Assembly (NCBI GenBank): GCA_032718475.1
Contig: JAUCBJ010005520.1
Location: 62,001 to 126,000, forward strand
Length of the DNA stretch: 64,000 bases
Source of the DNA: Nemertoderma westbladi
Lineage: Eukaryota > Animalia > Xenacoelomorpha
Direction of reading: 5' to 3'
A model generated the notes under the pieces. The model made no database searches, was not told the DNA's origin, and saw only the letters and a list, made by a program, of their open reading frames with translations. The translations under genes were made by a program, and so were the position numbers. Positions 7,194 through 49,714 of the stretch are shown here, piece after piece. Numbering within the stretch: the stretch's first letter is position 1; the number at the start of each line of letters is the position of its first letter.

Positions 7194-8250
7194 GGGGGGG
7201 GGGGGGGGGGTGTTGCGCATTTTCTGACCAAAAAGTCGAATTTTTGAAACATATCCTATCTGATGCAGAATTTCATGCTGAATCCAAATATGGAAACCGT
7301 TTTCCCATATCTTGCTTAGTTTTCGAGATATCTGGGATAGAAGATACTGGCTCCAATATATTTATTATATTATTATATTTATTATATATCATTTCTGCAA
7401 ATTTCTGTGCACAGTGGTGCTAATTGGATGTCTCCACGAGAAAGAGCACAAAATCTTAATTGAGAAGGTATTTTTTTATGATTATTAGACCTACTGATCA
7501 GTTTATAAGACAACTTCAAGTCTCCGGAATGAAGACGGGACTCGAATAAGCGACTCTGCGGTCTTTGCGGGATTACACGGAATAGACTTATCGGTCATCG
7601 GAGATCTTCAAAATGTATAATCTCCAGTTCTAGTGGTCGTACGAAGTTCGTTTTAGTTCGTACGAAGTTCGAAAGCTCTTTTCTTAGAGAACAAAGTTAC
7701 CATTTGATTTAAGACAAAATGGTTGGAAAGCAACATAACATGAATTAGGGTAAAATTTTTGGTAACTTTTGTCTCTGAGAAAAGAGCTTTCGAATGAGCC
7801 CTAAACGAACTCCGTACGACCCTTATACATTTTGAAGATCTCCGATGACCGATAAGTCTATTCTGTGTAATCCCGCAAAGACCGCAGAATCGCATATTCG
7901 AGTCCCATCTTCATTCCGGAGACTTGAAGTTGTCTTATAAACGGATCAGTAAGTCCAATAATCATAAAACAATACCTTCTCAATTAAAATTTTGTGCTCT
8001 TTCTCGTGGAGACACCCAATTAGCACCACTGAGCACAGAAACTTGCAGAAATTGAATGCAAACCCCAAACTTCATCTCCTTTACCGATATCGCGATATAT
8101 CGGAGCCAGTATCTTCTATCCCAGATATCTCGAAAACTAAGCAAGATATGGGAAAAGGGTTTCCATATTTGGATCCAGCATGAAATTCTGCATCAGATAG
8201 GATATGTTTCAAAAATTCGACTTTTTGGTCAGAAAATGCGCTACCCCCCC
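7194..8250. mobile_element. Foldback non-autonomous DNA transposon with TTAA TSD (Kolobok-like termini)
   Basis: Almost the whole 1.06 kb is an imperfect palindrome with arms of roughly 450 bp or more. G-run/C-run termini; TTAA at 7190-7193 and 8251-8254. Purine-starting ends with a TTAA TSD fit Kolobok better than piggyBac. Confidence 0.75.
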
Positions 8251-10721: not shown

Positions 10722-11249
10722 TGTGACGGGATCCAGGAGGGATCCCGATTTATCCGATGTTTAGTTCACGCGTCCCCGCCGTGTGTAAAGAGTAAAATGA
10801 GTTCTGATGTTCGGTGTATATAATGATCAGTCTAATAAGATATAGATATAGGTTGTTGTACACGGAAGGCGGGATACGGTAACTAAAGTCCCGGTCCTTC
10901 CCTAGCTAAACTATCTAACCTAACTAGCACCAATATGATACTGGGATAACTGACTGGTATGATTACTGGTAACTGGTTATATTGCACGGTGGCCTTATTG
11001 CTGTACCTAATCGATGCCTTGCCCCCCTCTGATTGGTTGATACCCTTGTTGGCGCCCCGTGGAGTGTTCCCGTTCACTCCATCTGTTCTCTCTGGGTTAG
11101 GGGTTTGGCCCCTGACCCTTGTTGTGTGGTTCTCCTTCCCACTCTATTGGGGTGACACGAGGTTGATATTGGTAATCAACCTCGTGCTCCCAATATTGCC
11201 TTATGGCTCACTTTATGGGTTTGTGTTAGCGGAATTGGATAAGCTAACA
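10722..11249 (-). repeat. 3' LTR of BEL/Pao element 1
   Basis: No difference from 17794-18321 seen by eye. Confidence 0.95.
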
Positions 11250-11287
11250 CTCCCCCCCATGCTATCTTCCCGGTAAGAAGATAGCAT
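11250..11287 (-). promoter_or_regulatory. Polypurine tract with adjacent 11-bp stem-loop
   Basis: Sense GGGGGGGAG abuts the LTR. It is preceded by the inverted repeat ATGCTATCTTC-N7-GAAGATAGCAT (11259-11287), which is also present in element 2. Confidence 0.85.
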
Positions 11288-11859
11288 CCAACTAAAGTGC
11301 GCTACAATTCCGCTGGAACTCGATCTATTATCGGGTGTGGGGTGGGGTTATTTTCTTGGAGTCGACTTTCCAGGCCGCTCCCTATGGGTATGATGTCACT
11401 ACCCTCTGGCGTCTCGTGTCGGGCCGATCGTGCGCTTCTCTCACACAATTTTTGTTTCCCCAACACTCTTACCACTCTAACTCCGCTCTCTGACTCAACT
11501 CGCTCTTACCCTCTCCCCACACCTGAATCGCACACTTCTCTCTCGCCAACAGCTCCTTTCACTATCTCCTCTCTACTCCCTGCCACTCTCTAAGGCCCTG
11601 ACCTCTAATGCTACCCCTGTGCTATCATACTATCTACCTTATCTAAGGTCTAACTTGCTAACTATCTAACTTCTCTAACTCTAACTAACTCCTAACTCTG
11701 CTAACTCTACTCTACTCTCTGCTAACTCTTACTACTTCTAGCTCTAACTAAAAGCCTCTAACTTTCTACTAACTCTAACTAGAACTCTCTAACTTTCTGC
11801 TAAGTCTACTAACTCTTTTCTAACTCTGACTAAAATCCTCCAACTAACTCTATCTCTAT

Positions 11860-12406
11860 CTACGTGGCGCTAACGGTGCCCACAACCACAACCGGTACTA
11901 CGTACCCTCTTACTAACTCTACCTCCATCTACGTGGCGCTAACGGTGCCCACAACCACAACTGGTACTACGTACCCTCTTACTAACTCTACCTCCATCTA
12001 CGTGGCGCTAACGGTGCCCACAACCACTCTACTACTGCTTCTACTCTGCTACTATCTTTCTAACTCTACTAACTCTCTACTATCTCTAACTCTACTAGCT
12101 GGCACCCTATGTGCCCTCTCTACTACTCTACTCTCTGGCACCCTATGTGCCCGTCTCTACTACTCTACTCTATCTACATCTCCACCTCAACTAATACCTC
12201 TATCTACGTGGCGCTTGCGGTGCCCACAACCACTCTCTCCTACTACTTTCTACGTGGCGCTTCCGGTGCCCACAACCTCTCTACCACCGCTACTTTCTAC
12301 GTGGCGCTTCCGGTGCCCACAACCTCTCTACCACCGCTACTTTCTACGTGGCGCTTCCGGTGCCCACAACCTCCCTACTACTACTCGTGGCATGACAATA
12401 TGCCAC
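11860..12406 (-). repeat. Array of GC-rich hairpin motifs in the 3' region of element 1
   Basis: Seven copies of CTACGTGGCGCTnnCGGTGCCCACAACC (11860, 11929, 11998, 12204, 12250, 12297, 12344), two of GGCACCCTATGTGCC and one GTGGCAT-N6-ATGCCAC. Confidence 0.85.
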
Positions 12407-12482
12407 ACTCCCTTACCCGCCGATTTCTAACTTAACTCTACTTACTATTATTTTAATTATTTAATTATTTATTAATATTTAT

Positions 12483-15287
12483 TTAAATTAAATAATTAAT
12501 TTTTTGTGGGAAGGGCGTCTCGCCCCCATTCCCACCCCCCTCAGTCCAAAACCTTGGACGACTAAACTCAAGGTGCCCCTTCTTCCAGTAGGCACACTCC
12601 CACTGCCCTTCTATACGTCCTCTTATTCTTCGCCACACCCTCTTCGCCAATTCCGCCTGACCAGGAATTGGTTCTCCCGCTTTCACCACCCTAAGGTTGG
12701 GTCTCTCCACCGTCTTCTTAACTAGCTCATCTCCTGGCATCAAAATGCCACCTCTCTCCTTGTTGTCTCCCGCCGGCAGAATGAATAGAAAGTGAAAGAA
12801 CAGGCAGAACAGTAGGTACAATAGTAGTCCTATCCCTTTCCGTCCTGCCTTCCTTCTCGACTTCCCCCTTGTCGGTATGCCTCCAAACCGGACCGGCATC
12901 TCTTCCGGACACTCCTCTAGACACTCCTCCAGACACTCCTCTGGAGTGTTGTCCTCCGGACACCTCGCCGTCCGCTCCGCTTCATCTCCATACCGATGCT
13001 TGCTGGGAAACCTACTCTCCTCTGCCCACTTTCTTACTGTCACCTCGCTATCTGGCTCTACTATCTCTCGTTTCTCCACTACTTCCTCTGCGTCTTCGGT
13101 GCCTGGTATCATGCACCCAGATGTCTCTGTCACACTGCATGGGATGTTGATTTTAACTGGGCCGCTAAGCGTCCATCCGAACGGCGTGAGGATCGCCGTC
13201 GGGTCCCGCTGCCTGTCTTCGCCGAAGACCGTCTTCATCCTCTCATGGGCCGTCGGGCAGTCCATTCCTACTATAATGGACACCTTCCTAACGTCCACCT
13301 TTGGTATTGAGAAATCGATACCGTCCAGGAATCTATACTGCTCGACCTCAATGTTGGTTGGTCGCCTGGCGTTGATGTTTATCGATTCGATGACGTGGAT
13401 GGGGTCGATCGTCGCCCCATAGCCGCATCCAGGTGCAATTGCTGCTATCCTGCACCGCCCCGTCCTCGTCTCCAGGACCTCATCTTTACTCGAGACGGTA
13501 GTTACCGCCATTCTGTTCGGCCTCGTCTTTAGCCCTATCTCTTCGGCCACCCAGTTCTCCACCAGCGTGAAGGCTGCTCCGCTGTCGACCAGCATTAATG
13601 TCGTTACTGATCGACCGCCCTCTCCTGATATCTTTACTGGTACTACCCCGAGTAGTACTTTTCTCTTCTTCTCCTCTTCTGGCGTACTTGTAGCCATTGT
13701 TTGGCCTCCAGTCTCGGACTCTCTAACTGCTGTTTCTCTACACTCTCCGGACCTGTGTCCTTCTACCACACATCGATGACATAGTCCGTTTGCGTCTGTG
13801 TAGGCTATACGATCTTGTTTGGGCAACGCTTGCCAGTGCCTACAACTCCTGGTCTTATGGGTTCCATCCCGATGTAATTGACATTCGAATCCCGGATTAT
13901 AGCGTTCCCTGTATAGTCCTTCACGTATCGCGCGTAGGTTTATATGTACCGATTTAGTGTTTTGGTTGTCTGTACTCGGCCTACTGGGTATATTGGGATT
14001 ATGTTTATTTATGGTGTTATTTTCTTTCTGTCCCTGCCACGGTGTGGCCCTACTACCAGCTAACTGTGGACTAGCAGTCCCCTGTGTGGCCGCATGTGGT
14101 AGTGATTGTCCTACTCTCGGGAGTGGATCTGCAGGATCGTGTTCGGGTTTATGGCTTGTCCCCAAACTATCCTCGCTATAGACTGGGTCTGTTATTAATT
14201 CGGCTTCATAGTTGAGGAAGCTCGACATTTCTTCTAGGCCCGGTTCCGCACCTTTCTTCTCTCGAGTGGAGAAGGCGATCTTCCTCCACTTTCTCCGCAG
14301 CCAGATCGGCAGTGCCTGCGCTATCGTGGTGATGTTGTTAGACGCGTTGAGTTCGTATGGTGCATCTAGCGTCTTCAGTACGATTAACGCCTTCTCGACC
14401 TTGTTTGCAAAGGTCCTTATGCTAACGGGATTGTCCTGTAGGCCATCCGATGTTATGCCTCTCAGGGTTTGCCGGATGATCTTGGCCGGGTGCCCGTATT
14501 CCCTATCTAGCGCCCGCCATGCTGTCGTGAAGCCTCCCTCGATGCCCTGGTATTGCCTCACGATGTCGTATGCTGGGCCTCCTGTATATACTTGCAGATA
14601 TTTTAGGCACTCCGCCTGCGTCAAGTTCTTACTTAATATTTCGTTACTATACATGCGCCGAAACTGTAGATATTCTTCCGGCCTACTCCCATCGAATTTA
14701 AACGGTTCCACGGGTGGTAACTCGATCCTAGTTTTTAACGCATCGATTAACGTGGCCATCCCCATCGCCTGCGCTTCCAATGGGTTCGATGGATGTTGTA
14801 TAGTTTCTCTTGCTGGGTACGGTCCGTTCATCCTATCTGCTGTTGACTTTGCTTGTTGCGTCGGGTATATCATTGGGGGTAACGGCCCCCTCCATATTTC
14901 CGTGTCGCACGATCTGCTCTCGTCCAAGGGGTTCGATGTTCTCGCTCCTATTGGGGTATATTGTTGATATTGTGATGGGGGAATGTCACCCTGTCCCCCC
15001 CCAGCCGGTATGTTTGGTACTGGGGTTGATGTTAATAAATTGGGGCCCACACATCTATCTCCAATAGCTCTCCCCTCCCCTGGATATATGTTATGTCCCT
15101 GTGTATTATAGTCATGCTGCTGTACCGATATAGGCCTACCTACCTCTCGCCTACCTACCGGTATGTACTCCGCGACTTCCGGGTTTAATTCCGTCGTTCG
15201 CGCTACCCCATCGCCTACTCTATCTCTCCCAGCATGGCCTATAATAGTATGTGCAGTAAGGCCTACAGTATGTCCTGCAGTCTGCAT
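12483..15287 (-). CDS. gag-pro: Pao Gag core, zinc knuckles and aspartic protease, fused to a hydrophobic segment and a probable integrase-tail remnant (934 aa)
   Basis: ELPPVEPFKFDG (Pao Gag, DUF1759-like), CQLH-x4-H-x4-C and CHRC-x4-H-x4-C knuckles, LVDSGA protease site, P-AILTPFGWTLSGP. Confidence 0.85.
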   Translation of the reverse strand: MQTAGHTVGLTAHTIIGHAGRDRVGDGVARTTELNPEVAEYIPVGRREVGRPISVQQHDYNTQGHNIYPGEGRAIGDRCVGPNLLTSTPVPNIPAGGGQGDIPPSQYQQYTPIGARTSNPLDESRSCDTEIWRGPLPPMIYPTQQAKSTADRMNGPYPARETIQHPSNPLEAQAMGMATLIDALKTRIELPPVEPFKFDGSRPEEYLQFRRMYSNEILSKNLTQAECLKYLQVYTGGPAYDIVRQYQGIEGGFTTAWRALDREYGHPAKIIRQTLRGITSDGLQDNPVSIRTFANKVEKALIVLKTLDAPYELNASNNITTIAQALPIWLRRKWRKIAFSTREKKGAEPGLEEMSSFLNYEAELITDPVYSEDSLGTSHKPEHDPADPLPRVGQSLPHAATQGTASPQLAGSRATPWQGQKENNTINKHNPNIPSRPSTDNQNTKSVHINLRAIREGLYRERYNPGFECQLHRDGTHKTRSCRHWQALPKQDRIAYTDANGLCHRCVVEGHRSGECRETAVRESETGGQTMATSTPEEEKKRKVLLGVVPVKISGEGGRSVTTLMLVDSGAAFTLVENWVAEEIGLKTRPNRMAVTTVSSKDEVLETRTGRCRIAAIAPGCGYGATIDPIHVIESININARRPTNIEVEQYRFLDGIDFSIPKVDVRKVSIIVGMDCPTAHERMKTVFGEDRQRDPTAILTPFGWTLSGPVKINIPCSVTETSGCMIPGTEDAEEVVEKREIVEPDSEVTVRKWAEESRFPSKHRYGDEAERTARCPEDNTPEECLEECLEECPEEMPVRFGGIPTRGKSRRKAGRKGIGLLLYLLFCLFFHFLFILPAGDNKERGGILMPGDELVKKTVERPNLRVVKAGEPIPGQAELAKRVWRRIRGRIEGQWECAYWKKGHLEFSRPRFWTEGGGNGGETPFPQKINYLI

Positions 15288-17762
15288 GTGCCCTTCCGAA
15301 CCGAAGTTTAATCTTCGCGAATCTCGAGTCTCCCCGCGACTACTGCACTCTCGATCGGCAGCTATATCACGTCGGGAAGCTTCTCTTCGATCCCCTCTCC
15401 TGTTCTCGACTTTGTATTGGTACCTCCTGTACCCCTTTCTTGGCGTGCGGTGCGTTTCTCCGGGGCGACGTCAATCTCCCGAAGTTCGACCCCACTGACT
15501 CCCTAACTCCATCTCTACCATCGACGGTCCGCTATCTGTCCTCACACTGCTATCGTTCGTGGCGACACTTCTTCTACTATCTTCTCTTCTTCCCCTTTTC
15601 GTGCAGTATTCCCGCTCGTGAGATCTCTCGTCGACCTCCCGGTTAAACTCCACTGTTCTTCTTCTCTCTTCTGATCGGGCTCGACGCTTCGTCTGCCCTC
15701 TCGCGACGTCAACCTGCCTCTCTCTGCTCGATCGCACGCCGCTGGGGATACTCGCAATCCCCCTATTACTCTCCGTCGCCGGGTGTTGCGGTTTACCTGA
15801 TTCGGCCCGCGCATTATCCGCTGACGGCTGTGGGACACTCTCTGCCCCCCCTCTCTCTCTACTAACTTCTCGCGGTGGGGTGTCCGTAGCCCCCCCCCCC
15901 ACCCGCTACTTCTAACTTCACTATCTCTTACTACACTTCTGCGTCCCTCTTGTCGGACACTCTCTACCCCCCTTCTCTCGCCACTAATCTTCTGTGGTGG
16001 GGCGCCCGTAGCCCCCCCCCCCCACCCGCCACTTCTAACTTCACTACCTCTTACTACACTTCTACACCCCTCTTGTGGGGCATTCTCTGCCCCCCCTCTC
16101 TCGCCGCTAATCTTATGTGGTGGGGCGCCCGTAGCCCCCCCCCCACCCGCCACATCTAACTTCAATATCTCTTACTTCGTCTCTACACCCCTCTCTAGTT
16201 GACACACTGTCTCTACTACGGCTGGGTCTTTTCACCCCCGCCTCTCTCCCTACTACTGCGAGGCCTACCAGGCCCACCCCGGGTTGGCTCAACCCCGCTA
16301 CCTCCTGCCTACCAACTACGTGGCCTACCAGGCCGCCGTCGGGTTGGCGCAACCCCGCCACCTCCTGCCTACTAACTACGTGGCCTACCAGGCCGCCGTC
16401 TGCCGGGCTATACACGTCTGACGCGTTCACATTAATAGCACCATTCCCAATATTATTTGTTAAATCAATTAAATTATTAGAATTTGAAACGGGATTATTA
16501 TTTAAATTATTTAAGTTAGAATTATTATTATTTTCAAAATTTAAATTGCTATTCGAATTATTTGAATTATTTTGATTATTCTGAATATTTGAATTAATAT
16601 TATTATTTGAATTTAAACTTAAATTACTACTACCGGGTAAGATATTTCCTGTAATAAAGGGATTAGGGTTATCTACTACGGTACTATCAATACAAACATT
16701 TCCTAACGTACTACTACTACCCCCCCCGCCCGTACGGTTACTGTACGTATTGTAAGTGTACCGCACGCTCTGTTCTCTTGCCTCACGCTCTTCGCGTTCA
16801 CTCTCTCGCTCCTTCCTTCCCCTCAGTCGCCACTCTAATTCTTCAATTTTTAATTTATATGCCATGCGTTCACTCTCTCGCACCCGTCTTTCTTTTGCGG
16901 AGGATGTAGCAGACTTATCGGTTGCGACGGACTCCCGCCGCCCCTCCGTCCTACTAACTTTCCCCCGCTTTCCGGGGTTCTCGCTGACCGACGAGACCGA
17001 ATCCTCGGAGCTAACCTCGGATTCGCCCTCGTGCGGTCCCGCCCAACGCACTAACTTAACTTCCCTGGCATCGACTAAGTATGGCCCTATGTACACTACA
17101 CCAGGCCCCATACCCCTACGTTCCCATAGCCCAAACAGTTCGAAGGCAACCCCTCTCGCTCTCTCCTCGGCCAGTTCTCCCTGCCCAGAACGCACTAGGT
17201 AATCAAAGTATCTGTTCGACTCACCTAGTCGTCTCCTCAACTTCACCTGGTCTATCTCAGCCCCTCTAGCTTCCTTCAGTTGTTCCCGGGTCGCGGTGTA
17301 GGCTCGTCGAAGTCGATCAGAAACCCCGACATCCTCGTCGCCGACCTCCCCTCCATCTCTCCGGGTCCGACGTCGTACCGGCGGCCCCACCGTTGCCGTT
17401 CCGGTGGGCCGTCCGTCGCCCTCGGCCTGTGGCTGGCCGGCGACATCGGTACGTCGACCCTCGCTCCGCATCGACTCGTCTTTCTCCTCTCCCGTCTCAC
17501 TCTCTCCTCTACTCGACTCGCTCTCTCCTCGTAGACGACCCCCCACATCTTGGTTCGCCGGGTTGCTCGTTATCGACGTGGCGTCAACCGGCGTCGACGT
17601 AGCATCGACCGGCGTCGTGGGTTCGTATCGTCTCGCCGTGGCCTCGCGGATCGTTAGATCGTCGTCCGGGGTCCGCGGCGGTGTCGTTCCTCTCTCTCGA
17701 CTCATCTTCGTCTTTAGTGATTGGTGGCTGGTGGTTATTGAGTTTATCCAGGGCAGCAGCAC
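15288..17762 (-). pseudogene. Long N-terminal extension of Gag in element 1 (broken reading frame)
   Basis: ORFs 16113-17762, 15542-16165 and 15471-15902 join across G-runs. The TGA at 15473-15471 is in frame with the Gag ORF and is TGC in element 2. Homologous to 24256-27030 and 46715-48990. Confidence 0.7.
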
Positions 17763-17784
17763 GGATTTAGTTACTGCCGAAGGG

Positions 17785-17793
17785 TTTAGTTAC
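17785..17793 (-). promoter_or_regulatory. Non-tRNA primer-binding position of element 1 (sense GTAACTAAA)
   Basis: Abuts the 5' LTR, lacks TGG, and is perfectly complementary to sense TTTAGTTAC at 17951-17959. Confidence 0.7.
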
Positions 17794-18321
17794 TGTGACG
17801 GGATCCAGGAGGGATCCCGATTTATCCGATGTTTAGTTCACGCGTCCCCGCCGTGTGTAAAGAGTAAAATGAGTTCTGATGTTCGGTGTATATAATGATC
17901 AGTCTAATAAGATATAGATATAGGTTGTTGTACACGGAAGGCGGGATACGGTAACTAAAGTCCCGGTCCTTCCCTAGCTAAACTATCTAACCTAACTAGC
18001 ACCAATATGATACTGGGATAACTGACTGGTATGATTACTGGTAACTGGTTATATTGCACGGTGGCCTTATTGCTGTACCTAATCGATGCCTTGCCCCCCT
18101 CTGATTGGTTGATACCCTTGTTGGCGCCCCGTGGAGTGTTCCCGTTCACTCCATCTGTTCTCTCTGGGTTAGGGGTTTGGCCCCTGACCCTTGTTGTGTG
18201 GTTCTCCTTCCCACTCTATTGGGGTGACACGAGGTTGATATTGGTAATCAACCTCGTGCTCCCAATATTGCCTTATGGCTCACTTTATGGGTTTGTGTTA
18301 GCGGAATTGGATAAGCTAACA
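17794..18321 (-). repeat. 5' LTR of BEL/Pao element 1
   Basis: Sense TGTTAGC...GTCACA, 528 bp, followed on the plus strand by the TSD TTGGA. Confidence 0.95.
18020..18053 (-). promoter_or_regulatory. Putative TATA box and Initiator of the element 1 LTR
   Basis: Sense TATAA (18053-18049) lies about 30 nt before TCAGTT (18025-18020). Same arrangement in element 2 (TATATA 23908, TTAGTT 23938) and element 3 (TATATT 49341, TCAGTT 49312). Confidence 0.6.
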
Positions 18322-23648: not shown

Positions 23649-24208
23649 TGTTAGCTTATCCAATTCCACTAACACCCCACAAAGTAAGCCGTTAAGCAAT
23701 ATTGGGGGCCACGAAGTTGATTACCCAACCTCGTGCCACCCCAACAAAGTGGGAAGGAGAAACACACAATAGGGGTCAGGGGCCATACCCCTGACAGAGA
23801 GAGAATAGCAGGAGTGAGGGGAAACACTCCAAAGGGCGCCAACAGGGATATTAGCCAATGGGGGGAAGGCACCGGCTAGGTACTGTAACAACGGCCAAAC
23901 CGTGCAATATATATTACCTGTCATCATGTTATTGTAGTTAGTTATTTCATTCTGTTAGTCGGTTAGCTAGGGTAGAGCGGTGACTTTTAATACCGTCCCC
24001 GTCTACTGCCATTATTAGTATTCAGTACATACCGTAAATTAATCAGTTATCTCATTCTATACACTATATCCATTTGACGTTTATATCATACATATATCGG
24101 AGAATTAATAACATCAGGACTCTCAAAACAATCTTTTCACATACACACGGCGGGGACGCGTAATTACAACAACCGGATAAACCGGGATCCTCCTAGGATC
24201 CCGTCACA
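23649..24208 (+). repeat. 5' LTR of BEL/Pao element 2
   Basis: TGTTAGC...GTCACA; direct repeat of 30425-30984. Confidence 0.95.
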
Positions 24209-24217
24209 GTATTAGAA
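24209..24217 (+). promoter_or_regulatory. Non-tRNA primer-binding position of element 2 (GTATTAGAA)
   Basis: Abuts the LTR, lacks TGG, and is complementary (one G-U) to TTTTAATAC at 23985-23993. Confidence 0.7.
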
Positions 24218-24255
24218 CTAAAATCTACCAGCCACCGATCTAAAGCAAAGATAAG

Positions 24256-27200
24256 ATGAGCGACATAACGCCAATGCGGACCCCGGACGAAGACCTAACG
24301 ATCCGCGAGGCCGCGACCAGACGGTATAGGCCCACGACGCCGGACCCATCGGTAATGGGCCATCCGGCAGTTCAGGATGAGGGGGGCCGTCTGGAACCAG
24401 AGGTCGAGTCGAGTGGAGGGGGAGTCGAGTCGAGAGAAAGAGAAAGCGAGATGGGAGAGGAAGAGGACGAGTCGACACGGAGCGGGGGTCGACGTACCGA
24501 TGTCGCCGGCCAGCCACAGGCCGAGGGCGACGGACGGCCCACCGGAACGGCGACGGTGGGGCCGCCGGTACGACGTCGGACCCGGAGAGATGGAGGAGAG
24601 GTCGGCGACGAGGACGTCGGGGTTTCTGATCGACTTCGACGGGCCTACAACGCGACCCGGAAGCTACTTAAGGAGGCCAAGGAGGGGGCGAGGATAGACG
24701 AGGTAAAGTTGACAACAGGACTAGGTGAGTCGGATAAACATTTTAGTTATCTAATGCGCTTCGGGCAGAGAGAACTGGCCAAGGAGAGAGCGAGAGGGGT
24801 TGCCGAGGAACTGTGTGATTTATGGCGGTGTAGGGGTATGCAACCTAGCGTAGTGTACATAGGGCCATACTTAGTCGATGCCCGGGGAATAAAATTAGTG
24901 GGTTGGAGGAGACCTGAGGAGGGCGAATCCGAGGTTAACCCCGAGGATTCGGTCTCGTCGGTCGGAGGAAGTTCTGGGAGGAGGGGGAAAGTTAGTAGAT
25001 CGGGAAGGCGGAGGGAATCCGTCACAACCGATAAGTCTGCTACATCCTCCGTAAAAGAAAGACGGGTGAGAGAGATAAATGCGACATACCATCTCGATCT
25101 GATAGCGCAAGGTCAGAGAGAAGTAAAGAGACGGTTAGAGGAGGGGAGAATGCTACTAGAGAAGGAAATGAAACTGATTAGAGAAACCGGAGAGAGGGCC
25201 GAAAGGGCCGCGAAAAGCTTTAGGGAGTGTGAGGAAATAGGGAGGAAGGAACAAGAGGAGCGTGAGGCGAGAGAGCAGAGTGAACGCAAGGAGCGTGAGG
25301 CGAGAGAGGAAAATGAACGCAAAGAGCGTGAGGCGGAACGCAAGGAACGTGAGGCGAGGGAGAAAAGTGAACGCAAAGAGCGTGAGGCGAGGGAGGAAAG
25401 TGAACGCAAAGAGCGTGAGGCGAGACGAAGGGAGGGAGCTAGGAGAGAGGCGGAATTGGCCGACCAGAACGCACGGGAGGGTCGGGAGAGAATGGCAAGA
25501 GAGGAGCGTGAGCGAAAAGAATTGGAAAGACGCCTAAGCGAGCTTATAGAGTACGAAACTAGACACACGCGCGAACTGGAACTGGCGCGGATAGGGGTGT
25601 CAGAGAGCGGGGCTGACTCGAATGTTTTCGAGGAGCCAAGGGCCGTGGATACATTTATTAATACCCCACTTACAGGGACCGCACGACAGACCCGAAACTG
25701 GTGTGACCGTACGGGCGGGGGGGGGGGGGGGGGGTAATAATAATACTACAGTAGACGACGTTAATATTAATAGTACCGTATTGGATAATCCTAACCAAGC
25801 CTTTATTGCAGGAAATACTTTACCTAGTAGTAGTAATTTAAATTTAAATACAAATAATCTAAATAATAATTTCAATTTAAACGTGCAAAATAACCCGAAT
25901 AGTAATTTAAATTTAGAAAATAATAATAACTCAAATAATTTAAATAATGATCCAAACCCGAATTTACAAAATAATTCAAATAGTGTAGTCGCGCAAAATA
26001 ATTCAAATGATTTTATTTCGAACGAACAAAATAATTCCGTTTCTAATATGGGTGCTATTAACGTGAACGCGTCGGACGTGTATAACCCGACAGACGGCGG
26101 CCTGGTAGGCCACGTAGTTGGTAGGCAGGGGGTGCCGGGGTTGAGTCGACCCGACGGCGGCCTGGTAGGCCACGTAGTTAGTAGGCAGGGGGTGGCGGGG
26201 TTGAGTCAACCCGAGGGGGGCCTGGTAGGCCAGGTGGCAGTAGAGAGAGAAGCGGGGGTGAATAGACCTAGCCGCAGTGGAAACATTGTGTCGACTGGAG
26301 AGGGGTGTAGAAGTGAAGTAAGAGGTAGCGGCGTGATATGTGGCGAGTGGGGGGGGGGCTACAGGAGCCCCGCAACGAGAAGTTAGTGGCGAGCGGGGGG
26401 GGGGCTACAGGAGCCCCACAGCGAGAAGTTAGTGGCGAGAGGGGGGGGGGCAGAGAGTGTCCCACAGGCGTCGGCGGATAATGCGCGGGCCGAATCAGGT
26501 AAACCGCAACACCCGGCGACGGAGAGTAGATAGGGGGATTGCGAGTATCCCCAGCGGCGTGCGATCGAGCAGAGAGAGGCAGGTTGACGTCGCGAGAGGG
26601 CGGACGAAGCGTCGAGCCCGATCAGAAGAGGGAAGAAGAACAGTGGAGTTTAACCGGGAGGTCGACGAGAGATCTCACGAGCGGGAATACTGCACTGACA
26701 GGAGAAGAAGGGAAGAGAGTAGAAGAAGTGTCGCCGCGAACGACAGGAGAGCGAGAACGGATAGCGAGCCGTCGGTAGTAGAGATGGAGATGGAGAGTCA
26801 GCAGGGTCGAACCTCGGGAGATTGCCGTCGCCCCGGAGGAACGCGACCTGACGAGGCGTATTGCGCGCAGAGAGAGGGGTACGGGATGTACCGGCACGAG
26901 AGCGAGAGTAGTAGAGGGGGTCGAAGAGAAACTTTCCGACGGGAAATACCTACCGATCGAGAATACGGTAGCCGCGGGGAGGATTATTCGAGAAGAATAA
27001 ACTTCGATCCCGAGCGACACATACAGACTGTAGGACGTACTGTAGGCCTTACTGCACATACTATAGGCCATGCTGACAGGAATAATGTAGGCGATAGGAT
27101 AGCGCGGACGACGGAATTAAACCCGGAAGTCGCGGAGTACATACCGGCAGGTAGGCCAGAAGCTGATAGGCCTATACCGGTACCAGTACAGCAGTATGAC

Positions 27201-30037
27201 TACAGCATGCAAGGACATAACATATACCCAGGGGAGGGGGGAATTATTGCGGATAGGTGCATGGGCCCCAATATATTAACATCAACCCCAGTACCAAACA
27301 TACCGGTGGGGGGGGGGGGGGGGGGGCAGGGTGACATTCCCCCATCACAATATCAACAATATACCCCAATAGGAGCAAGAACAACGAACCCCTTGGATGG
27401 AAATAGGTCATGCGACACAGAAATATGGAGGGGGCCGCTACCCCCAATGATATACCCAAGCCAGAGGAAGGCAGGAAATAGGACGGACGGACCGCACCTA
27501 ACAGGAGAAACTATACAACATCCATCGAACCCATTGGAAGCGCAGGCGATGGGAATGGCCACGTTAATAGATGCGTTAAAAACTAGGATCAAGCTACCAC
27601 CCGTGGAACCATTCAAATTCGATGGGAGCAGGCCGGAAGAATACCTACAGTTTCGGCGCATGTATAGCAACGAAATACTAACAAAGAACTTGACGCAGGC
27701 GGAGTGCCTAAAGTATCTGCAAGTATATACAGGAGGCCCAGCATACGACATCGTGAGGCAATACCAGGGCATAGAGGGCGGCTTCACGATGGCATGGCGG
27801 GCACTGGACAGGGAATACGGGCACCCGGCCAAGATCATCCGGCAAACCCTGAGAGGCATAACATCGGGTGGCCTACAGGATAATCCCGTTAGCATTAAGA
27901 CGTTCGCGAACAAGGTCGAAAAGGCGCTAATCGTACTGAAAACGCTAGACGCGCCATACGAGCTCAACGCATCCAACAACATAACCACGATAGCGCAGGC
28001 ACTACCGATGTGGCTGCGCAACAAGTGGAGGAAGATCGCTTTCTCCACTCGAGATAGGAAGGGTGCGGAACCGGGTTTAGAAGAAATGTCGAGCTTCTTA
28101 AACTAAGAAGCTGAATTAATAACCGACCCAGTCTATAGTGAGGACAGCCTGGGAAAGGGACCAAGAACAGATTACCATAGACCGAAGCCGGAACACAACA
28201 CGTCAAACGCATTGCCGAAGCTCAGGCAATCACTGCCATACGCAGCGACGCAGGGGACTGCTAGTCCACAGGTAGCCGGGGGTGAGACCACATCATGGAG
28301 TGGACAGGGGAAAAATAACAACACAAACAAACATGACCCTAGTACGCCCAGTAGGCCGAACCCAAACAATAAGAATAGTAGGGACTTTGGTACAAATGCA
28401 ACCGCGATACGCAATGCATTGTATAAGGACGGCTACGACCCAAAGAGCAAATGCCAGCTACATACAAATGCGCTCCATCAGACCATGAACTGCAGGTACT
28501 GGCAAGCATTACCCAGGGAAGATCAAGTAGAATACGCGGCGAGAAATGAGATCTGCTCGCGATGTGTGATGAGTGGACATAGAGCTAGACAATGCGAGGA
28601 AACACCGATTAAGTTCGGTCAAAGTAAAGGCCAAGCGATGGCAACGAGCACAGTAGGGGCGAAGAAGAGAGGAACGGTACTACTTGGGGTAGTACCAGTG
28701 CGAGTAATCGGGGAAGGCAACCGATCAGTGACCACACTTATGCTGGTCGACAGTGGAGCTGCCTTCACATTAGTCGAGAATTGGGTGGCCGAGGAGATAG
28801 GATTGAGAACGAGGCCAAGTAGAATGGCGGTAACAACAATTTCTAGCAAAGATGAGGTCCTGGAGATGAGGACCGGACGGTGCACGATTGCAGCGGTGGC
28901 ACCGGGATGCGACTACGGGGCGACCATCGACCCCATCCAAGTGATAGAGTCAATAAATATCAATGCCAGGCGGCCAACCAACATCGAGGTCGAACAATAT
29001 AAATTCCTGGATGATATCAACTTCTCAATCCCAGAGGTGGACGTTAGGAAGGTATCCATTATAGTAGGAATGGACTGTCTGACGGCCCACGAAAGAATGC
29101 GAACGGTCTTCGGCGAAGACAAGCAGTGTGACCCGGTGGCAATATTGACACCATTCGGGTGGACGCTGAGTGGCCCAATCAAGAGTAAGATACCATTTAG
29201 GATGTTGGAGACATCAGGATGCATGTTCGCGGGAACTATGCGAGAAATGGAGGATGAGGGAGCAGAGGAGCAGCTCAGGAGACTGCTCAGGCAGGATTTT
29301 GAAGGATTAAAGGAGACCGGGGTCGGAACCTCGGTAGAAGATATACCATAGGGATGGTATGGAAGCTACCGAAGCTACCGCTACCCGATAATAGAGGGAT
29401 GGTACTCACGAGGCTTCGTAAGTTAAAGCAGACACTAAAATGGAGCCCCGAGAAGAATGAGTACGTCCACAGAACGATTAAGAAGTACGTCGAGAAAGGA
29501 TGGGCCGTGGAGTTACCGGTCGACGAACCAAGCACGGACAGGACATATTACCTACCACTCCACGTGGCTTTAGATCCAAAGAAAGGTAAACTGCGGATGG
29601 TAGTTGACGCATCGGCCAAAACCAACGGAAAATGCCTAAACGACAATCTGCTGGAGGGTCCCAATATCTACAACTCGGGGATCGAGGTCCTACTTAGATT
29701 CAGGAATGGAAAACACGCCTTCACCTGTGATATAGAAGGCATGTTCAACCAAGTCCGTGTAACGGAAGAAGATAGCGATAGCCAACGCTTCTTATGGTAC
29801 AACGGCGATGAAGAACCGTCGATTATACCGACGTACAAGATGATAGTACAGAACATGGGAGCCAAGTCGTCTTCATTTACGACGACTATGGCAGTAAGAG
29901 ACACAGTGAAGGGCAAGGAGGATAGATACAGCACTAGGGCCGTCGATATGATTCGACGCGGCTTCTACGTAGACGACGGAATGGAGTCTGGAAATACGGT
30001 TAAGGAGATATTGGACACAGGGCGCAGGGTGAGATAG
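24256..30037 (+). pseudogene. gag-pol: Pao gag-pro-RT polyprotein with long N-terminal extension, broken by frameshifts and stops
   Basis: ORF pieces 24256-25737, 25622-26386, 26457-28106 (TAA where element 1 has TAT), 28212-29351 (knuckles, LVDSGA) and 29354-30037 (YLPLH, LRMVVDAS, LNDNLLEGPN, DIEGMFNQV, FYVDD, all Pao RT motifs). Confidence 0.9.
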
Positions 30038-30424
30038 GGCGAGATATGAGTAATAGAGCGTGGAGTGCGGAGTGTGGAGAGGGCGTGGGCGCAATTCAAA
30101 TGTGGGGGGGGGGGGGGGAGAAGTAAGAGGCGGAGTGAGGGACGAGGAGGTCCGAGAGTATGCGAGAGTTAGGGTGAGAGCGGAGGAGAGTCAGGGAGAA
30201 AGTGTTGGGGAAACAAAATCGTATGAGAGGAGCGCACGATCGGCCCGACATGGGACGCCAGGCGAACAGGGTAGCATTATCATGCCCATAGGGAGCGGCC
30301 TGGAAAGCCGGCTCCGAGAGAAAACAGGCCCACCCCACACCCGATACTAGATCGGGATCCAACGGAATTGTAGCGCACTTGAGGAGGATGCTATCTTCTC
30401 ACCGGGAAGATAGCATGGGGGGAG

Positions 30425-30984
30425 TGTTAGCTTATCCAATTCCGCTAACACCCCACAAAGTAAGCCATTAAGCAATATTGGGGGCCACGAAGTTGATTAC
30501 CCAACCTCGTGCCACCCCAACAAAGTGGGAAGGAGAAACACACAATAGGGGTCAGGGGCCATACCCCTGACAGAGAGAGAATAGCAGGAGTGAGGGGAAA
30601 CACTCCAAAGGGCGCCAACAGGGATATTAGCCAATGGGGGGAAGGCACCGGCTAGGTACTGTAACAACGGCCAAACCGTGCAATATATATTACCTGTCAT
30701 CATGTTATTGTAGTTAGTTATTTCATTCTGTTAGTCGGTTAGCTAGGGTAGAGCGGTGACTTTTAATACCGTCCCCGTCTACTGCCATTATTAGCATTCA
30801 GTACATACCGTAAATTAATCAGTTATCTCATTCTATACACTATATCCATTTGACGTTTATATCATACATATATCGGAGAATTAATAACATCAGGACTCTC
30901 AAAACGATCTTTTCACATACACACGGCGGGGACGCGTAATTACAACAACCAGATAAACCGGGATCCTCCTAGGATCCCGTCACA
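30425..30984 (+). repeat. 3' LTR of BEL/Pao element 2
   Basis: Direct repeat of 23649-24208, followed by the TSD ACGTG. Confidence 0.95.
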
Positions 30985-36141: not shown

Positions 36142-37884
36142 TATATTTATATCGCGCCTTTAAGAATAAAAATATACATGCAAGGCGCCAGCAATAACGA
36201 TATGAAAGTCATTAAGGTATACACGAATACATAAATGAAGAAGAGTATACATAGAGAAGGTATACATAAATGATAGTCAAAAAACGTAAAAAAGTACATT
36301 TATAGTTATTCATATTCTTCCTTGAAAAGGAAAGTTTTCAGGCGAGATTTGAATGAGTCAACTCCAGGTGCGCTACGGACATTCATCGGCAGAGAGTTCC
36401 AAACCTGTGGTGCAGCAACGGAAAAAGCGCATTTTCCATAATTTGAGAGACAAAATCTTGGTACGACGAGCAACATCTTATCACTGGAGCGTAACTCGCG
36501 ATGCCAGAACATATGGTGTCAATAGGTCCCTGAGATATTGAGGTGCCAGGCCGTTCAAACATTTGTAAGTCAACAACGCTATTTTGAAATCAATACGGCG
36601 ACGAACAGGAAGCCAATGTAGGCTTTTAAGGACAGGTGTAATATCTTCCCGCTTTCGGACACCCAGTAGAAGACGCGCGGCTGAGTTTTGTACATATTGT
36701 AGCTTCTTAATGAGATTATTCGGCAGACCATAATATAGCGAATTGTTGCAGTCTAGCTTGCTTGTTACCAAGGCATGTATAAGAGTCTCTAGAGTGTCCT
36801 TCTGTAAACATTTTCTGATTTTGGACAGGTTCCGAAGGTGGAAGAAGGAATCTCGCACAGTGATGGCAATCTGTTTACTAAAAGACAAATGAGCGTCTAT
36901 GTAGAAGCCAATGTCACGGGCGTCACTGCTACATTTTACTCTATTGTTGCCTATTTGTAGACAAGGCGGGTCTATCTGACATCCAAACCGTGATTGCAAC
37001 AATAAACATTCTGTCTTGTCCATATTCATCTTGAGTAGATTTGTATTCATCCAGCTCTGTATGTCACGTAAACATTCCTCGGTAACGGTTCAAATGCAAT
37101 ATATATTTGAGTGTCGTCGGCATATAAGTGATATGTTAAACCATGCTTTAATATGACAGACGACAGGGAGCGAGTATATATTGTGAAAAGTAAGGGTCCT
37201 AAAACGGAACCTTGAGGTAAGCCATACTTCAGGTCTTTGAATTTCGAGTACGCATCACCAATAAGTACCTGTTGTTTACGTCCTGAAAGGTATGAACGAA
37301 ACCATTGCAGTGCATTATCTTTTACCCCAATATCATGTTCTAGAATATTCAGTAAGATACTGTGTTCCACCGTATCAAAGGCCGCGCTTAGATCCAATAG
37401 TATAAGTAGCACAGCTGACCCGCTATCGATACTTCGTAGTACATTATCAGTAACCGACAGTAATGCAGTTTCAGTACTATGTAATGGTCGATATGCACTT
37501 TGCATTGGCTCATTAAGAGAGTTCATATCCATATGTTTCATTAGCTGTATAGCTACGGCCTTCTCAGTTAACTTGGCTATGTATATGAGATGTGAGACTG
37601 GTCTAAAGTTCTTAAAAACTTCCGGATCCAGACGCAGCTTCTTCAGTACCGGCGATAATACCGCTTCTTTGAAAAGTTGTGGAACTGTAGAAGTTGAAAG
37701 TGACAAATTAATAATTATTGTGATAATGGGTAGAAGTAACTTGATGGATAATTTAACTAAACGCGTTGGCATCGGGTCACACGGACTAGATTTCGATTTT
37801 GAGTTGTTTATTAGATCTTCAGTATCAGCTGTGGACAGGTCATCAAATATTCGGAAGGAATTGTTTGGAGATTCAGTTAGAGCT

Positions 37885-38075
37885 GCTGCCGGAGTAACCA
37901 TTACCGGATTCGGATCCGCTGGAGTAGCAGTTACCGGATTCGGACCCGCTGGAAGTAACGGTTACCGGATTTGGATCCGTTGGAGTAACCGTTACCGGTT
38001 TCGGACCCATTGGAGTAACGGTTACCGGTTTCGGAACCGTTGGAGTAATGGTTACCAGATTCGGTACCGCTGGTG
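37885..38075 (-). repeat. 30-bp coding minisatellite, second block (about 6 units)
   Basis: Same unit as 39300-39987, located between APE and RT. Confidence 0.85.
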
Positions 38076-39299
38076 TCTGTTGTAAATCATCCCGTATGTC
38101 TGTTATTTTCTTATCGAAAAAGTCAGCAAATCTGTTTGCCAGCTCCTCTTCACTGTCTGCGTCAGGTAACTTTGTTTTAGTCTTCCGGTACAGTATTGTA
38201 TCAATTACTGAGAATAATTTCTTTTGATTTTCTTTTATTATGTCCCGATAAAATGTTTCTTTTGCTGTAACAATAATATCAGAAACGCGTTTACACTGAT
38301 CTCTATAAGCAGTTTGGTCAACAATAAGTTTAGATTTTCGATACTTCCTCTCTAATTATTGCCGTTTTCTTTTCTCCTCTGCAATGTTATCGTTGTACCA
38401 CTCTGACTCGGGACGTCTTCGCACGGTTTTCCGCATTGCCGGAGCATGTTTATTCATTATCATGGATAATGTGTCATTGTATTGAAGCAACATCATTGAG
38501 ATTATCAGAGGGAGTTTGATATAACGGTGATGATTCTAGATCGTATGTAAGGTGATCCCAGTTAATTTTTTTAATGTTTCTATATGTAAATGATTCAAGG
38601 GGCATTTCTGGTTTAAGCAGATCAATATCGAAATGTACAGCAAAATGGTCGGATAATCCAATATCTTCAATGTGGATGTTTTTGATAGTTTTCTCATCAT
38701 CTGAATGAACCAGAATAAGGCAAGAGTGAGCCCATGTCTGTGAGTTGGCTCCGTTACTAACTGCACCAACCCAAAACATTTGATTAGGTTGCCGAAATCA
38801 TTAGCATCTTTGTCGTTCTTGTCATCCACATGAAAGTTAAAATCCCCCAATAAAGTAATCTTCCCAGCCATGATGATTATATGCTGCATGAAATCTGCAA
38901 ATTGGTCAAAGAATTGCTGTACAGTTAATCCATTTGTAGCCGAGGGGCACGTCCGATATACTATAATAATCCTCATCAATACCCCAATATAAATCATTGT
39001 AAATTCAATATATTCAAAGGTCGAGTAAACTACACAATTGGCGCTTTTCTTTAGTTTTAGAGTCTCATTGTGTATAGCCACACCTCCTCCCCTACATCCG
39101 GTGCGGGCTTGACTCTGCACTGTGCCACCAGTGGGGCATATTTCATTAACTATTATGTCATCATCCACATCACCCCTTAACCACGTTTCGGTAATAGCAG
39201 TTATGTCAAATTTCTCATCCACTATGTAGTCCTTTATTACCGGAGCTTTGTTAACAATGGATCTAGCATTGTATAAGCAACAATGTATCAGCTGAGATC

Positions 39300-39987
39300 G
39301 GGAACCAACCGGTATCGGAGCCGCTGGAGTAACGGTTGCCGGATTCGGATACGCTGGAGTAACAGTTACCGGATTCGGACCCGCTGGAGTAAGAGTTACC
39401 GGATTAGGACCCGGTGGAGTAACGGTTACCGGTTTCTGACCCGATGGAATAACGTTTCCCGTATTCGTATTCGGACCCGCTGGAGTAACTGTTACCGGAT
39501 TCGGACCCACTGGAGTAACGTTTCTCGTATTCGGACCCGCTGGAGTAAGGTTTCGCGTATTCGGACCCGCTGGAGTAACGTATCCCGTATTCGGACCCGC
39601 TCGGGTAACTTTTCTCGTATTCGGACCCGCTGGAGTAACAGTTACCAGTTTCGGACCCGCTGGAGTAACAGTTACGGGATTCGGACCTGCTGGAGTAACA
39701 GTTACTGGATTCGGACCCGCTGGAGTTACAGTTACCGGATTTGGACCCGCTGGAGTAACATATCCCAGATTCGGACCCGCTGGAGTAATGTATCCTGTAT
39801 TCGGACCCGCTGGAGTAACATTTCCCATATTCTGACCCGCTGGAGTAACGTATCCCATATTCGGACCCGCTGGAGTAACGTTTCCTGTATTCGGACCTGC
39901 TGGAGTAACGTATCCCATATTTGGACTCGCTGGAGTTACGTTTCCCGTATTCGGACCCGCTGGAGTAACGGTTTCTGGATTCGGCAC
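39300..39987 (-). repeat. 30-bp coding minisatellite (about 23 units of PAGPNxxxVT)
   Basis: Plus-strand unit CCGCTGGAGTAACAGTTACCGGATTCGGAC and variants, in frame with the APE domain. Confidence 0.9.
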
Positions 39988-40044
39988 CCAATGAACAGAT
40001 CGACATGCAGTACTTGGATGTAGGGGTAAGCGTACGGATGGTTG

Positions 40045-41223
40045 TCAATCCAGATCAACCTGCAGCTGCCCTGCAGACCCTGGATTGCTCGGTGTAAGAG
40101 TAACCGTTGATTCCTCAATAACAGAAACATCAGTGTTAGACAGACCATTCTGTGGATGCTCCGCATCCGACCGTGCACTCCTCTTTAGTGCACTGGAGTC
40201 CACAACTTCATTCTTGTAGATAACCCAATGGGTTTTCGGATCTGTAGCAATCAAGTCTCGTCGTCGTTGACGCAACTGAAATTGTAAGGTACTTTCTGCA
40301 GGAGTGTAGTCGGGCGATATATAGACCTCATTATAACGTCTGCATTTACGAAGCTCTCGAGATTTCTTCAGTATAGCAGTGCGTTTCTCCTTCGGGAGGG
40401 TTACGACAATTGGTTGAGTTCTAATGTTGCCAGCATTCCCAGCTCGTCTCTTTGTCTTTATTTGGGACTCATTTAATTGTATATTCAACGAACAGGCTAT
40501 GTTGATTACCGCTTTGGTGTCATTGTCATTCTCACAAGAAGGCAATCCTTTAATAACGAGGTTTAATTCCCGGCGTCGCTGGTCGGCTTCCTCGTCCTTA
40601 ATCTGACGGGCGAGGACGGCAACGTTAGTGGCGGCCGGAGTACCCTTCCCCCGCGGACGGCGAGGAGGAACAACGTTCCAGCTCGCACCGTCATTGGTAT
40701 CAGACACGCCTCGCTCAGTAGTCAACTGGAGATCAAGATCCTCTAGTTGCTGTTTAATTTCCTCTCTTTTTCGTTCATCACTTTCAATGTAATTGTTTAA
40801 ATTACTTTGAATTTCTTTTACTGAATCCTGGAGCGACTTAGTAACTTGGTCCTGATCTGCAGCGTCGTTTTCGAAGCAGTCGCGTAGCGCATTGAGTTCA
40901 GAGTCATGTCGTGATTCCAATTCCTTAATCTCATCAGATAGCCGTATGATGTGTTTTGCCATGCATTTCCCACAATAGAATTGAACCGAACCGAAATTTG
41001 TACCAGGTTTAGCCACGACGATCACAGTAATCTTGCAACTACTTCCGGAGCACTCTACCTCGATCTCTTCCTGTCCGTCGATCCTAGAATCGGATGTTTG
41101 TTGGTTGCCATTGCCGTCAGCCGGTAACTTTTTCCTACTGTTATACTGAAGTTGCCCACTTTGGCGGCGTCGGTGGTTGTCCCCTACTGATAGGGATTTT
41201 CTTTCTGGTTGAGAATTACTCAT
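40045..41223 (-). CDS. L2 ORF1 protein (392 aa)
   Basis: Intact ORF with a Cys cluster, a coiled coil, and RRELNLVIKGLP and VYISPDYT--E motifs of L1-like ORF1 RRM/CTD. Confidence 0.85.
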   Translation of the reverse strand: MSNSQPERKSLSVGDNHRRRQSGQLQYNSRKKLPADGNGNQQTSDSRIDGQEEIEVECSGSSCKITVIVVAKPGTNFGSVQFYCGKCMAKHIIRLSDEIKELESRHDSELNALRDCFENDAADQDQVTKSLQDSVKEIQSNLNNYIESDERKREEIKQQLEDLDLQLTTERGVSDTNDGASWNVVPPRRPRGKGTPAATNVAVLARQIKDEEADQRRRELNLVIKGLPSCENDNDTKAVINIACSLNIQLNESQIKTKRRAGNAGNIRTQPIVVTLPKEKRTAILKKSRELRKCRRYNEVYISPDYTPAESTLQFQLRQRRRDLIATDPKTHWVIYKNEVVDSSALKRSARSDAEHPQNGLSNTDVSVIEESTVTLTPSNPGSAGQLQVDLD

Positions 41224-48800: not shown

Positions 48801-49039
48801 TCGACTCGTCTCTCCCTCGTGGTTGATGGCCGCCCTCCGCTTGGGCTACCGGATCGTCCCTCATCGGCGAATCCGGTGTGGCTGGCCGATACCGTCGCGT
48901 CGCGGCCTCACGGATCATTTGGTTGGTGTCATCCGGGGTCCACGGCAGCGTCCTCTCACCCTCTGATAATCGGGGCTCCCTATTGCTCATCTCGATCTCT
49001 CTTCCTTGCAGTCACAGTTTGTTGGCAGTCAAACTCGGC

Positions 49040-49049
49040 AGTTAATGAC
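49040..49049 (-). promoter_or_regulatory. Non-tRNA primer-binding position of element 3 (sense GTCATTAACT)
   Basis: Abuts the LTR and is a perfect 10-nt complement of sense AGTTAATGAC at 49268-49277. Confidence 0.7.
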
Positions 49050-49714
49050 TGTGACAGGATCAGAGATCCCGACCGGGTTAGAAATGTACTCGTTACCATT
49101 CTGCTTGGCAATCGTGCTACTCGCTTTGGCTGAAGGCTGTTAGGGAAAACAATAAGAGTTTGTGTTGTTTGTCAGTATTGATTAACATAGGCGATAATAG
49201 CAAGTCGGTAATTGAATATGAATATAGCAGAAAATACAGGTTAATTGTTACCGGTATGGTGGTGGCGGTCATTAACTATGACCGGTCTGCACTGACTGAA
49301 TAACTCAACTGACTGGTAAATCAGCAATGTAAGATAATATATGATTAACACACATTGAATATTGGTTTCACCTCCTACTGCACTTTGGCCCTCTGTACCC
49401 AATGGATGCTTTCCTGTTCCCAATCATGTGCTTCCCTCCCCACTATTGGCTAATATACAAATTGTCACTTTGGCACTCCCTGTGAGTGTTTCCCCCCGCT
49501 GCTAGCCTCTACTAGCTGTGTTCCCTCCGAGGTGGTTTGACCTCTCACCTTTCTCTGTGGCTTTGGGGCTTGTGTCACCCACCCAATGTTGGTTATGAGA
49601 CGAGATTGATATTGGTAATCGTCGAAATAATTGTCTCGAATCCCCAACATATTGCTAAAATGCCACTGGTCCCATTTTCTGGTGGGTAATGAAGTGGAAT
49701 TGAATCCGCTTACA
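49050..49714 (-). repeat. 5' LTR of element 3 (665 bp)
   Basis: Sense TGTAAGCGGATTCAATTCCAC...GTCACA is homologous to the ends of LTRs 1 and 2. No partner LTR in the window. Confidence 0.75.

Follow-up and report, generated by a model that had tools for sequence, protein, structure and literature searches.

Three related LTR elements in a 64,000-nucleotide stretch of Nemertoderma westbladi DNA (the window) carry, directly after the 5' LTR, where a tRNA primer-binding site (PBS) would lie, a leader sequence complementary to a site in the element's own LTR. This LTR:leader duplex is a real, non-chance feature: it sits at the end of the LTR, it co-varies among the elements, and it recurs in distant relatives. 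We think that these defective BEL/Pao elements probably self-prime minus-strand DNA with a capped 43- to 73-nt piece from the 5' end of their own RNA, which the RNase H of a helper element would cut. We also offer, tentatively and with slightly less than even confidence, a broader reading: in a widespread branch of animal BEL/Pao elements, tRNA priming may have been replaced by a long capped self-primer that is mostly assembled by splicing, with the window family being an intron-free form gated by a decoy in U5.

Self-comparison of the window yielded the three elements, E1 (minus strand), E2 (plus) and E3 (minus) (Table 1). E1 and E2 have the TG..CA ends, short target site duplication (TSD; 5 bp in both), and polypurine tract of LTR elements; the E2 LTR pair shows 5 differences in 560 bp. 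E3 has one LTR and keeps the first part of its interior, which is lost beyond about position 46715. E1 and E2 both encode a DUF1759 gag and an aspartyl protease (PR), and gag-PR also aligned to P0001. The order in E2 is PR then reverse transcriptase (RT), with RNase H and integrase deleted; its RT fragment has 53 protein matches (29 to 42% identical), mostly polyproteins that carry PF05380 and in many cases PF18701, domains that we take to mark BEL/Pao. Judged by its proteins (gag, protease, and the E2 RT), the E1-E3 family belongs to BEL/Pao. Membership in the Tf1/sushi group, which has a Ty3/gypsy chromovirus RT and a chromodomain integrase, was rejected because the window proteins are those of BEL/Pao. 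A protein search with gag-PR gave only four matches, at 20 to 22% identity, with no close family member and no named lineage among them; the viral contigs searched contained no relative. E2 lies on a long branch (1.54) of a quick RT tree, where its placement is unsure.

Table 1. Coordinates of E1, E2, and E3 and their features (positions within the window)
Feature	Position	Strand	Remarks
E1 whole element	10722-18321	-	From self-comparison
E1 5' LTR	17794..18321	-	528 bp, TG..CA; 0 differences from 3' LTR
E1 3' LTR and polypurine tract	10722..11259	-	LTR 10722-11249
E1 gag (DUF1759) and protease frame	12483..15470	-	RT, RNase H, and integrase absent
E1 PBS-position sequence	17785..17793	-	No TGG
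E1 exact second copy of PBS-position 9-mer	17766..17774	-	
E1 candidate self-primer 3' end	17951..17959	-	Ends AC, then CG
E1 LTR arm upstream of primer site	17972..17984	-	Partner of downstream leader in some other copies, by eye
E1 R arm just 3' of predicted cut	17940..17950	-	Predicted pairing with U5 arm 17852-17843
E1 U5 arm and PBS-like decoy	17832..17852	-	Decoy at 17841-17832 resembles the PBS but has one extra base; competes for site
E1 U5 hairpin	17799..17819	-	8 bp, ends 5 nt before PBS; z -4.3
E1 putative TATA-like and Inr-like (TCAGTT) motifs	18057-18049 and 18025-18020	-	Inferred start 18023
E2 whole element	23649-30984	+	From self-comparison
E2 5' LTR	23649..24208	+	560 bp
E2 3' LTR and polypurine tract	30416..30984	+	LTR 30425-30984
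E2 gag, protease, and 5' part of RT	26433..30034	+	RT 29303-30034; several broken frames; RNase H and integrase absent
E2 PBS-position sequence	24209..24217	+	No TGG
E2 candidate self-primer 3' end	23985..23993	+	
E2 R arm	23994..24003	+	Predicted 10-bp stem with U5 arm 24149-24158
E2 short decoy	24160-24165	+	
E2 U5 hairpin	24183..24203	+	9 bp; z -4.9
E2 leader arms	24224..24238	+	Predicted pairing with LTR 23959-23976, upstream of primer site
E2 putative TATA-like and Inr-like motifs	23904-23912 and 23938-23943	+	Inferred start 23940
E3 5' LTR	49050..49649	-	600 bp; sole LTR
E3 PBS-position sequence	49040..49049	-	No TGG
E3 candidate self-primer 3' end	49268..49277	-	Also arm of local 7-bp hairpin (49284-49266)
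E3 putative TATA-like and Inr-like motifs	49343-49335 and 49312-49307	-	Inferred start 49310

Queries with eight full-length relatives detected neither RNase H nor integrase in the window, and RT only as its 5' part, in E2; the E1-E3 copies are therefore classed as non-autonomous. No helper element with RNase H was found within the window. Because the two LTRs of E1 are identical, we infer that it inserted recently, with the aid of a helper outside our view.

Several other features accompany these elements. Directly before the polypurine tract, a hairpin of about -17 kcal/mol is predicted in E1 (11260-11288, minus) and E2 (about 30387-30415, plus), and the differences between the two copies are confined to its loop region. 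Upstream of gag lies a frame of about 500 aa (16113-17789, minus; 24244-25737, plus; 48424-49011, minus) that has Glu/Arg-rich repeats, an Asn-rich stretch, and no Pfam match. The repeats that hold the E1 and E2 insertions have empty-site homologues at 61029-62329 and 323-1520 of the window. Elsewhere are two other RT frames (37047-37961, minus; 41314-43404, plus), one with an endonuclease domain (non-LTR type), which bracket a 30-nt tandem array (about 39268-40074); a palindromic element of 1045 bp that is 84% self-complementary (7206-8250); and tandem arrays of 26-nt and 68-nt units (55395-55596 and 57835-58657).

Counted from the first base after the LTR, the duplex comprises 9 Watson-Crick pairs in E1, 9 pairs including one G-U in E2, and 10 in E3 (11 if a terminal G-U is counted), and the paired LTR site lies 157 to 218 nt upstream of the LTR end. 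When chance was defined as an equal run anywhere in the dinucleotide-shuffled LTR (5000 shuffles per element), P was 0.0022 for E1, 0.0008 for E3, and 0.068 for E2, which alone is thus not significant. Each leader forms no more than 5 Watson-Crick pairs with the LTRs of the other two window elements, and a strict test against 18 other LTRs gave maxima of 6 (E1), 7 (E2), and 7 (E3). None of the nine shared pairs is broken: positions 1, 2, and 8 are invariant, positions 3, 4, 5, 6, and 9 have changed on both sides, and position 7 on one side (T-G); the changes between E2 and E3 are equally readable as a matched one-base indel, and the three elements are copies of one family, not independent cases. 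The initial annotation had reported the missing TGG after all three 5' LTRs, the complementarity to a homologous site in each LTR, and the compensatory nature of the substitutions; we recovered all of these, with identical positions and letters throughout and with five of nine pairs changed on both sides.

Position sets the duplex apart from background. Among start offsets from -40 to +99 (n = 140), the best contiguous match falls at offset 0 in all three window elements, tied in E1 with +19 (the duplicate of the site) and +85, and a 9-base match occurs at 3 of 414 other offsets. A looser search, with a spacer of 0 to 5 and splice joints allowed, brought 29 of 132 mismatched pairs to 9, so it is position and co-variation, and not length, that carry the argument.

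In a metagenome scan, 557 stretches from 25 of the collection's 64 parts were confirmed, and the best of them make up 69 BEL/Pao loci. The 5' LTR end was set by both LTR copies in 11 of them; L019 duplicates L020 and was left out, which leaves 10 families. We shifted the end of L036 by 9 to 10 bases by eye, to the divergence point of its LTR copies, and the 3' LTR copy of L046 ends in TTA instead of CA. The complementarity that the initial annotation described for the window elements is also present in 9 of the 10 families, though only across an intron junction: once a GT..AG intron of 76 to 405 nt is removed, 11 to 15 bases of the leader, starting 0 to 5 nt after the LTR, pair with the junction in the element's own LTR. 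The best uninterrupted match in these nine is 6 to 9, and only the junction gives 11 to 15. The tenth family, L062, whose LTRs are only 84% alike, has no match above 9. Mismatched pairs reached 11 in 6 of 132 cases, all among three loci with one common primer; with two G-U pairs allowed and 19 elements compared, 23 of 342 did so, and four loci that have one primer in common account for 12 of these. The best match of 140 offsets fell at 0 to 5 in 12 of 12 elements (3 from the window and 9 from metagenomes, with ties in E1 and L042), and the nine metagenome loci have an 11-base match at 2 of 1197 offsets outside 0 to 6.

Seven further loci, whose ends were picked by eye and which are not independent, pair over 10 to 18 bases. 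Across the 19 elements tabulated (3 window elements and 16 relatives), TGG is absent from the 5 nt next to the LTR end, the primers mostly end in AC, and the leaders differ widely in sequence yet match their own LTRs. Background was high in a blind scan of 54 loci, where 15 of the 54 mismatched controls also came to 11, and those of its hits that lack an independent boundary (L001, L017, L021, L028, L041, L049, L059, L061, and L066) serve only as leads; of these, L021, L041, L059, and L066 look uninterrupted, like the window family. The remaining loci of the 69 lacked a usable LTR plus leader. An intron-split primer was rejected for the window family, in which the best spliced matches (8, 7, and none) fall below the contiguous ones (9, 9, and 10). 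Spliced and uninterrupted forms are intermixed in the quick RT tree, which gives no order for intron gain or loss.

Canonical, spliceosomal-looking introns whose removal creates the PBS complement occur in many BEL/Pao elements, as in the LTRs of L004-L052. L021 (about 1-290) and L029 (2024-2440) are related and have the last 7 candidate-primer bases in common; an intron precedes these bases in L029 and none does in L021. L030 (1-15884) is a head-to-tail array of 100% identical BEL/Pao elements with shared LTRs.

All three window LTRs contain motifs that we presume to be TATA-like and Inr-like (Table 1), and E1 and E3 have a common 12-base stretch over the Inr in LTRs that otherwise diverge there. 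From the predicted start to the last paired C is 73 nt in E1, 54 nt in E2, and 43 nt in E3. The conserved TATA plus Inr and the distance of 43 to 73 nt proposed in the initial annotation thus stand as motifs and spacing, while the start itself keeps its predicted status. Leader sequence beyond the PBS is also complementary to the LTR upstream of the primer site (P = 0.016 for E2 and 0.023 for E3; 0.26, not significant, for E1), and this additional pairing in E2 and E3 points to a longer 5' fragment. A transcript start well upstream of the primer site, and with it a long (43- to 73-nt) 5' fragment, therefore has indirect support.

Folding predictions give further helices that would flank the duplex in a pretzel-like arrangement resembling the three duplexes of Tf1: E1 and E2 have an R:U5 stem directly 3' of the predicted cut, and each of the three elements has a U5 hairpin, which ends 5 nt before the PBS (z of -1.5 in E3); the central duplex is not part of the predicted minimum structure in E1 and E2. 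In the predicted folds of these two, the site pairs instead with a PBS-like U5 decoy, leaving primer:PBS a pair probability of 0.01 to 0.04, and forcing the duplex costs 1.3 to 3.6 kcal/mol. In E3, primer:PBS has a probability of about 0.9 with 30 to 45 nt of leader and costs 10.3 kcal/mol with 60 to 80 nt. The duplex itself is weak (-5.1 to -10.6 kcal/mol) and, in E1 and E2, shorter than the 11 bp of Tf1. A U5 terminal hairpin as a general feature of the relatives was rejected (z of -1.5 to +1.4).

The window element is present in five DNA runs of three studies. Within 40 of the 52 variant rows from other copies in the host, no variant touches the PBS with the adjoining LTR end (17785-17807), the U5 arm (17833-17867), or the primer site with its R arm (17934-17972), whereas variants are plentiful in the spacer (17868-17933), and the common variant of the U5 hairpin lies in its loop; such invariance is conservation and not co-variation, and mapping favours look-alikes. 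Loose ends that appear, by eye, to complement 17984-17972 occur in host contigs, one in a single contig and one in four reads.

We propose that transcription would start at the TATA/Inr of the 5' LTR and that the RNA would fold into a pretzel-like junction, with primer:PBS flanked by the R:U5 stem and the U5 hairpin. The U5 decoy would have to be displaced, a step that might switch the RNA from an mRNA to a genome state or back. As in Tf1, RNase H, here supplied in trans by the helper, would cut after the paired AC to leave a free 3'-OH, and DNA extended from it would begin at the terminal base of the LTR. RT would copy U5 and R downstream of the cut, then jump to the 3' LTR, and the primer site would be inherited from that LTR copy. 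The plus strand may copy the primer while it is still attached to the minus strand, as with Tf1 cDNA. Such copying would rewrite the PBS, so that a change in the LTR site would enter the PBS without a second mutation, and it could account for both the tight co-variation and the extra leader complementarity. With no modified base as a stop, synthesis could continue deeper into a long primer; this would explain the extra complementarity and perhaps the duplicated site of E1. In spliced relatives, the intron of the 3' LTR would have to stay unspliced, and one slip might give rise to an intron-free family like that in the window, whose uninterrupted site would represent the intron-free state of a site that many relatives appear to assemble by splicing. 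Self-priming as put forward in the initial annotation is supported by where the duplex lies, by its co-variation, and by its recurrence in unrelated BEL/Pao loci; the annotation had overlooked the need for a helper, the U5 decoy, and the intron-split sites in many relatives.

Other explanations of the duplex can be weighed against this proposal. Chance complementarity in AT-rich sequence, which might be suspected from the loose search and the P value for E2, has a negligible probability given the strict shuffles, the leader swaps, the offset profile, and the homologous site common to all three elements. That the elements prime exactly as Tf1 does, with transcription starting at or just before the paired site and a primer of about 9 to 11 nt, is unlikely. 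An Inr-like TTAGTT does lie inside the E1 site itself, and the primer is the RNA 5' end in Tf1-group elements, at least in the accessible portions of that literature; yet the TATA-like motif lies about 30 nt before the upstream Inr, and not before the site, in all three elements, and the leaders of E2 and E3 are also complementary to LTR sequence upstream of it. Spliced relatives, moreover, require an upstream exon, and those with a TATA-like motif (4 of 16) imply a fragment of >100 nt. We likewise regard as improbable a primer of the element's own sequence that comes from elsewhere, either the 3' LTR copy at the RNA 3' end or a separate short transcript of the LTR that acts in trans. Both LTRs contain the site, and the pairing copy cannot be told from DNA sequence; the fold in cis is unfavourable in E1 and E2, and in host contigs the coverage of U5 far exceeds that of the leader, which means that many LTR copies exist. 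Against such a source, no AATAAA-type signal was seen by eye 10 to 35 nt before the site, and the distance of the site from the LTR end, together with the conserved R:U5 stem that follows the site closely, is as expected for a 5' junction in cis.

The duplex might instead be a structural or regulatory helix (for packaging, translation, or a dimer switch), with priming left to a tRNA fragment, a small RNA, or a protein; we consider this quite improbable. The competing decoy and the local hairpins do look switch-like. On the other side, a purely structural helix need not lie at offsets 0 to 5 from the LTR end, as the duplex does in 12 of 12 elements, and 19 differing leaders that each match their own LTR would call for many different host RNAs. 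The E2 LTR plus leader matched no tRNA at E up to 10, the window contains no tRNA gene, and it has no Rfam match at the gathering score. One segment of the E2 LTR (23963-23991) seems to us to resemble the D and anticodon arms of tRNA-Lys; it was rejected as a tRNA, being without Rfam support or a tRNA match. Priming by half-tRNAs is known in Copia groups, according to the accessible part of PMC6317226, which favours this alternative.

If self-priming by a long 5' fragment is correct, it would add another superfamily, the third, to the LTR elements that self-prime, here with a primer several times the length of the Tf1 primer, and the splicing-dependent primer of the relatives would tie retrotransposition to host RNA processing. 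Such elements might also escape control through tRNA fragments, and PBS-finding tools would miss TGG-less BEL/Pao elements of this kind. The ICTV description of Belpaoviridae (PMC8742986) gives host-tRNA priming from an 18-nt PBS for tRNA-Arg or tRNA-Gly and calls replication poorly understood. The window elements resemble Belpaoviridae in the TG..CA LTRs, 5-bp TSD, polypurine tract, DUF1759 gag, and protease of E1 and E2 and in the RT fragment of E2, and differ in having no 18-nt tRNA PBS; this absence conflicts with the ICTV description, not with the placement in BEL/Pao by proteins. Neither "PBS" nor "tRNA" occurs in the main text of two BEL/Pao surveys (PMC3118150 and PMC554778), and the available portions of PMC5445492, PMC5443660, PMC3601003, PMC9094657, PMC8220671, and PMC11042837 do not describe BEL/Pao self-priming. 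In line with the initial annotation, which knew of no such description, our literature search, which covered titles, abstracts, and accessible text, found none. BEL/Pao self-priming with a long 5' primer would best be read as a new form of a process already known from Tf1.

Self-priming is described for Tf1/sushi elements (PMC7175516, PMC4600332, PMC5341516, and bioRxiv 10.1101/2022.12.06.519325). As far as the accessible parts of these and related papers go, Tf1 RNA is cut by RNase H after base 11 (PMC7175516), and forms a three-duplex structure (bioRxiv 10.1101/2022.12.06.519325), and about 50% of particles contain cDNA whose 3' end carries a copy of the PBS (PMC11042837). Like Tf1, Tf2, Tj1, and the Tf1/sushi group as they appear in those texts, the window elements have no tRNA PBS and a post-LTR sequence that pairs with their own R region, as well as predicted flanking duplexes of PBS-adjacent and LTR sequence. 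Tf1 is a Ty3/gypsy chromovirus, whereas the window elements belong to another superfamily; its self-priming was shown by experiment, that of the window family is proposed from sequence. In Tf1 the first 11 nt of the RNA serve as the primer, while the window site is predicted to lie 43 to 73 nt from the start. Unlike in Tf1, the window leader also pairs upstream of the site, a U5 decoy competes for it, and the site is intron-split in relatives. Self-priming has also been predicted for the Tcn1 clade and the TAR copia elements Houba and Osr-1 in the consulted part of PMC6317226, where the criterion is LTR:PBS complementarity of 10 bp or more that begins 0 to 5 bp after the LTR; E3 and the relatives reach this length, and the 9 bp of E1 and E2 are just short of it. 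The TAR lineage (plant Ty1/copia) and Tcn1 belong to other superfamilies, and that part of the paper does not mention a split primer. Fungal GalEa copia elements have, like the window family, lost the tRNA PBS and have a conserved hairpin site instead; complementary LTR sequence was not found in GalEa, going by the accessible text of PMC5445492, whereas in the window elements it is present and co-varies with the leader.
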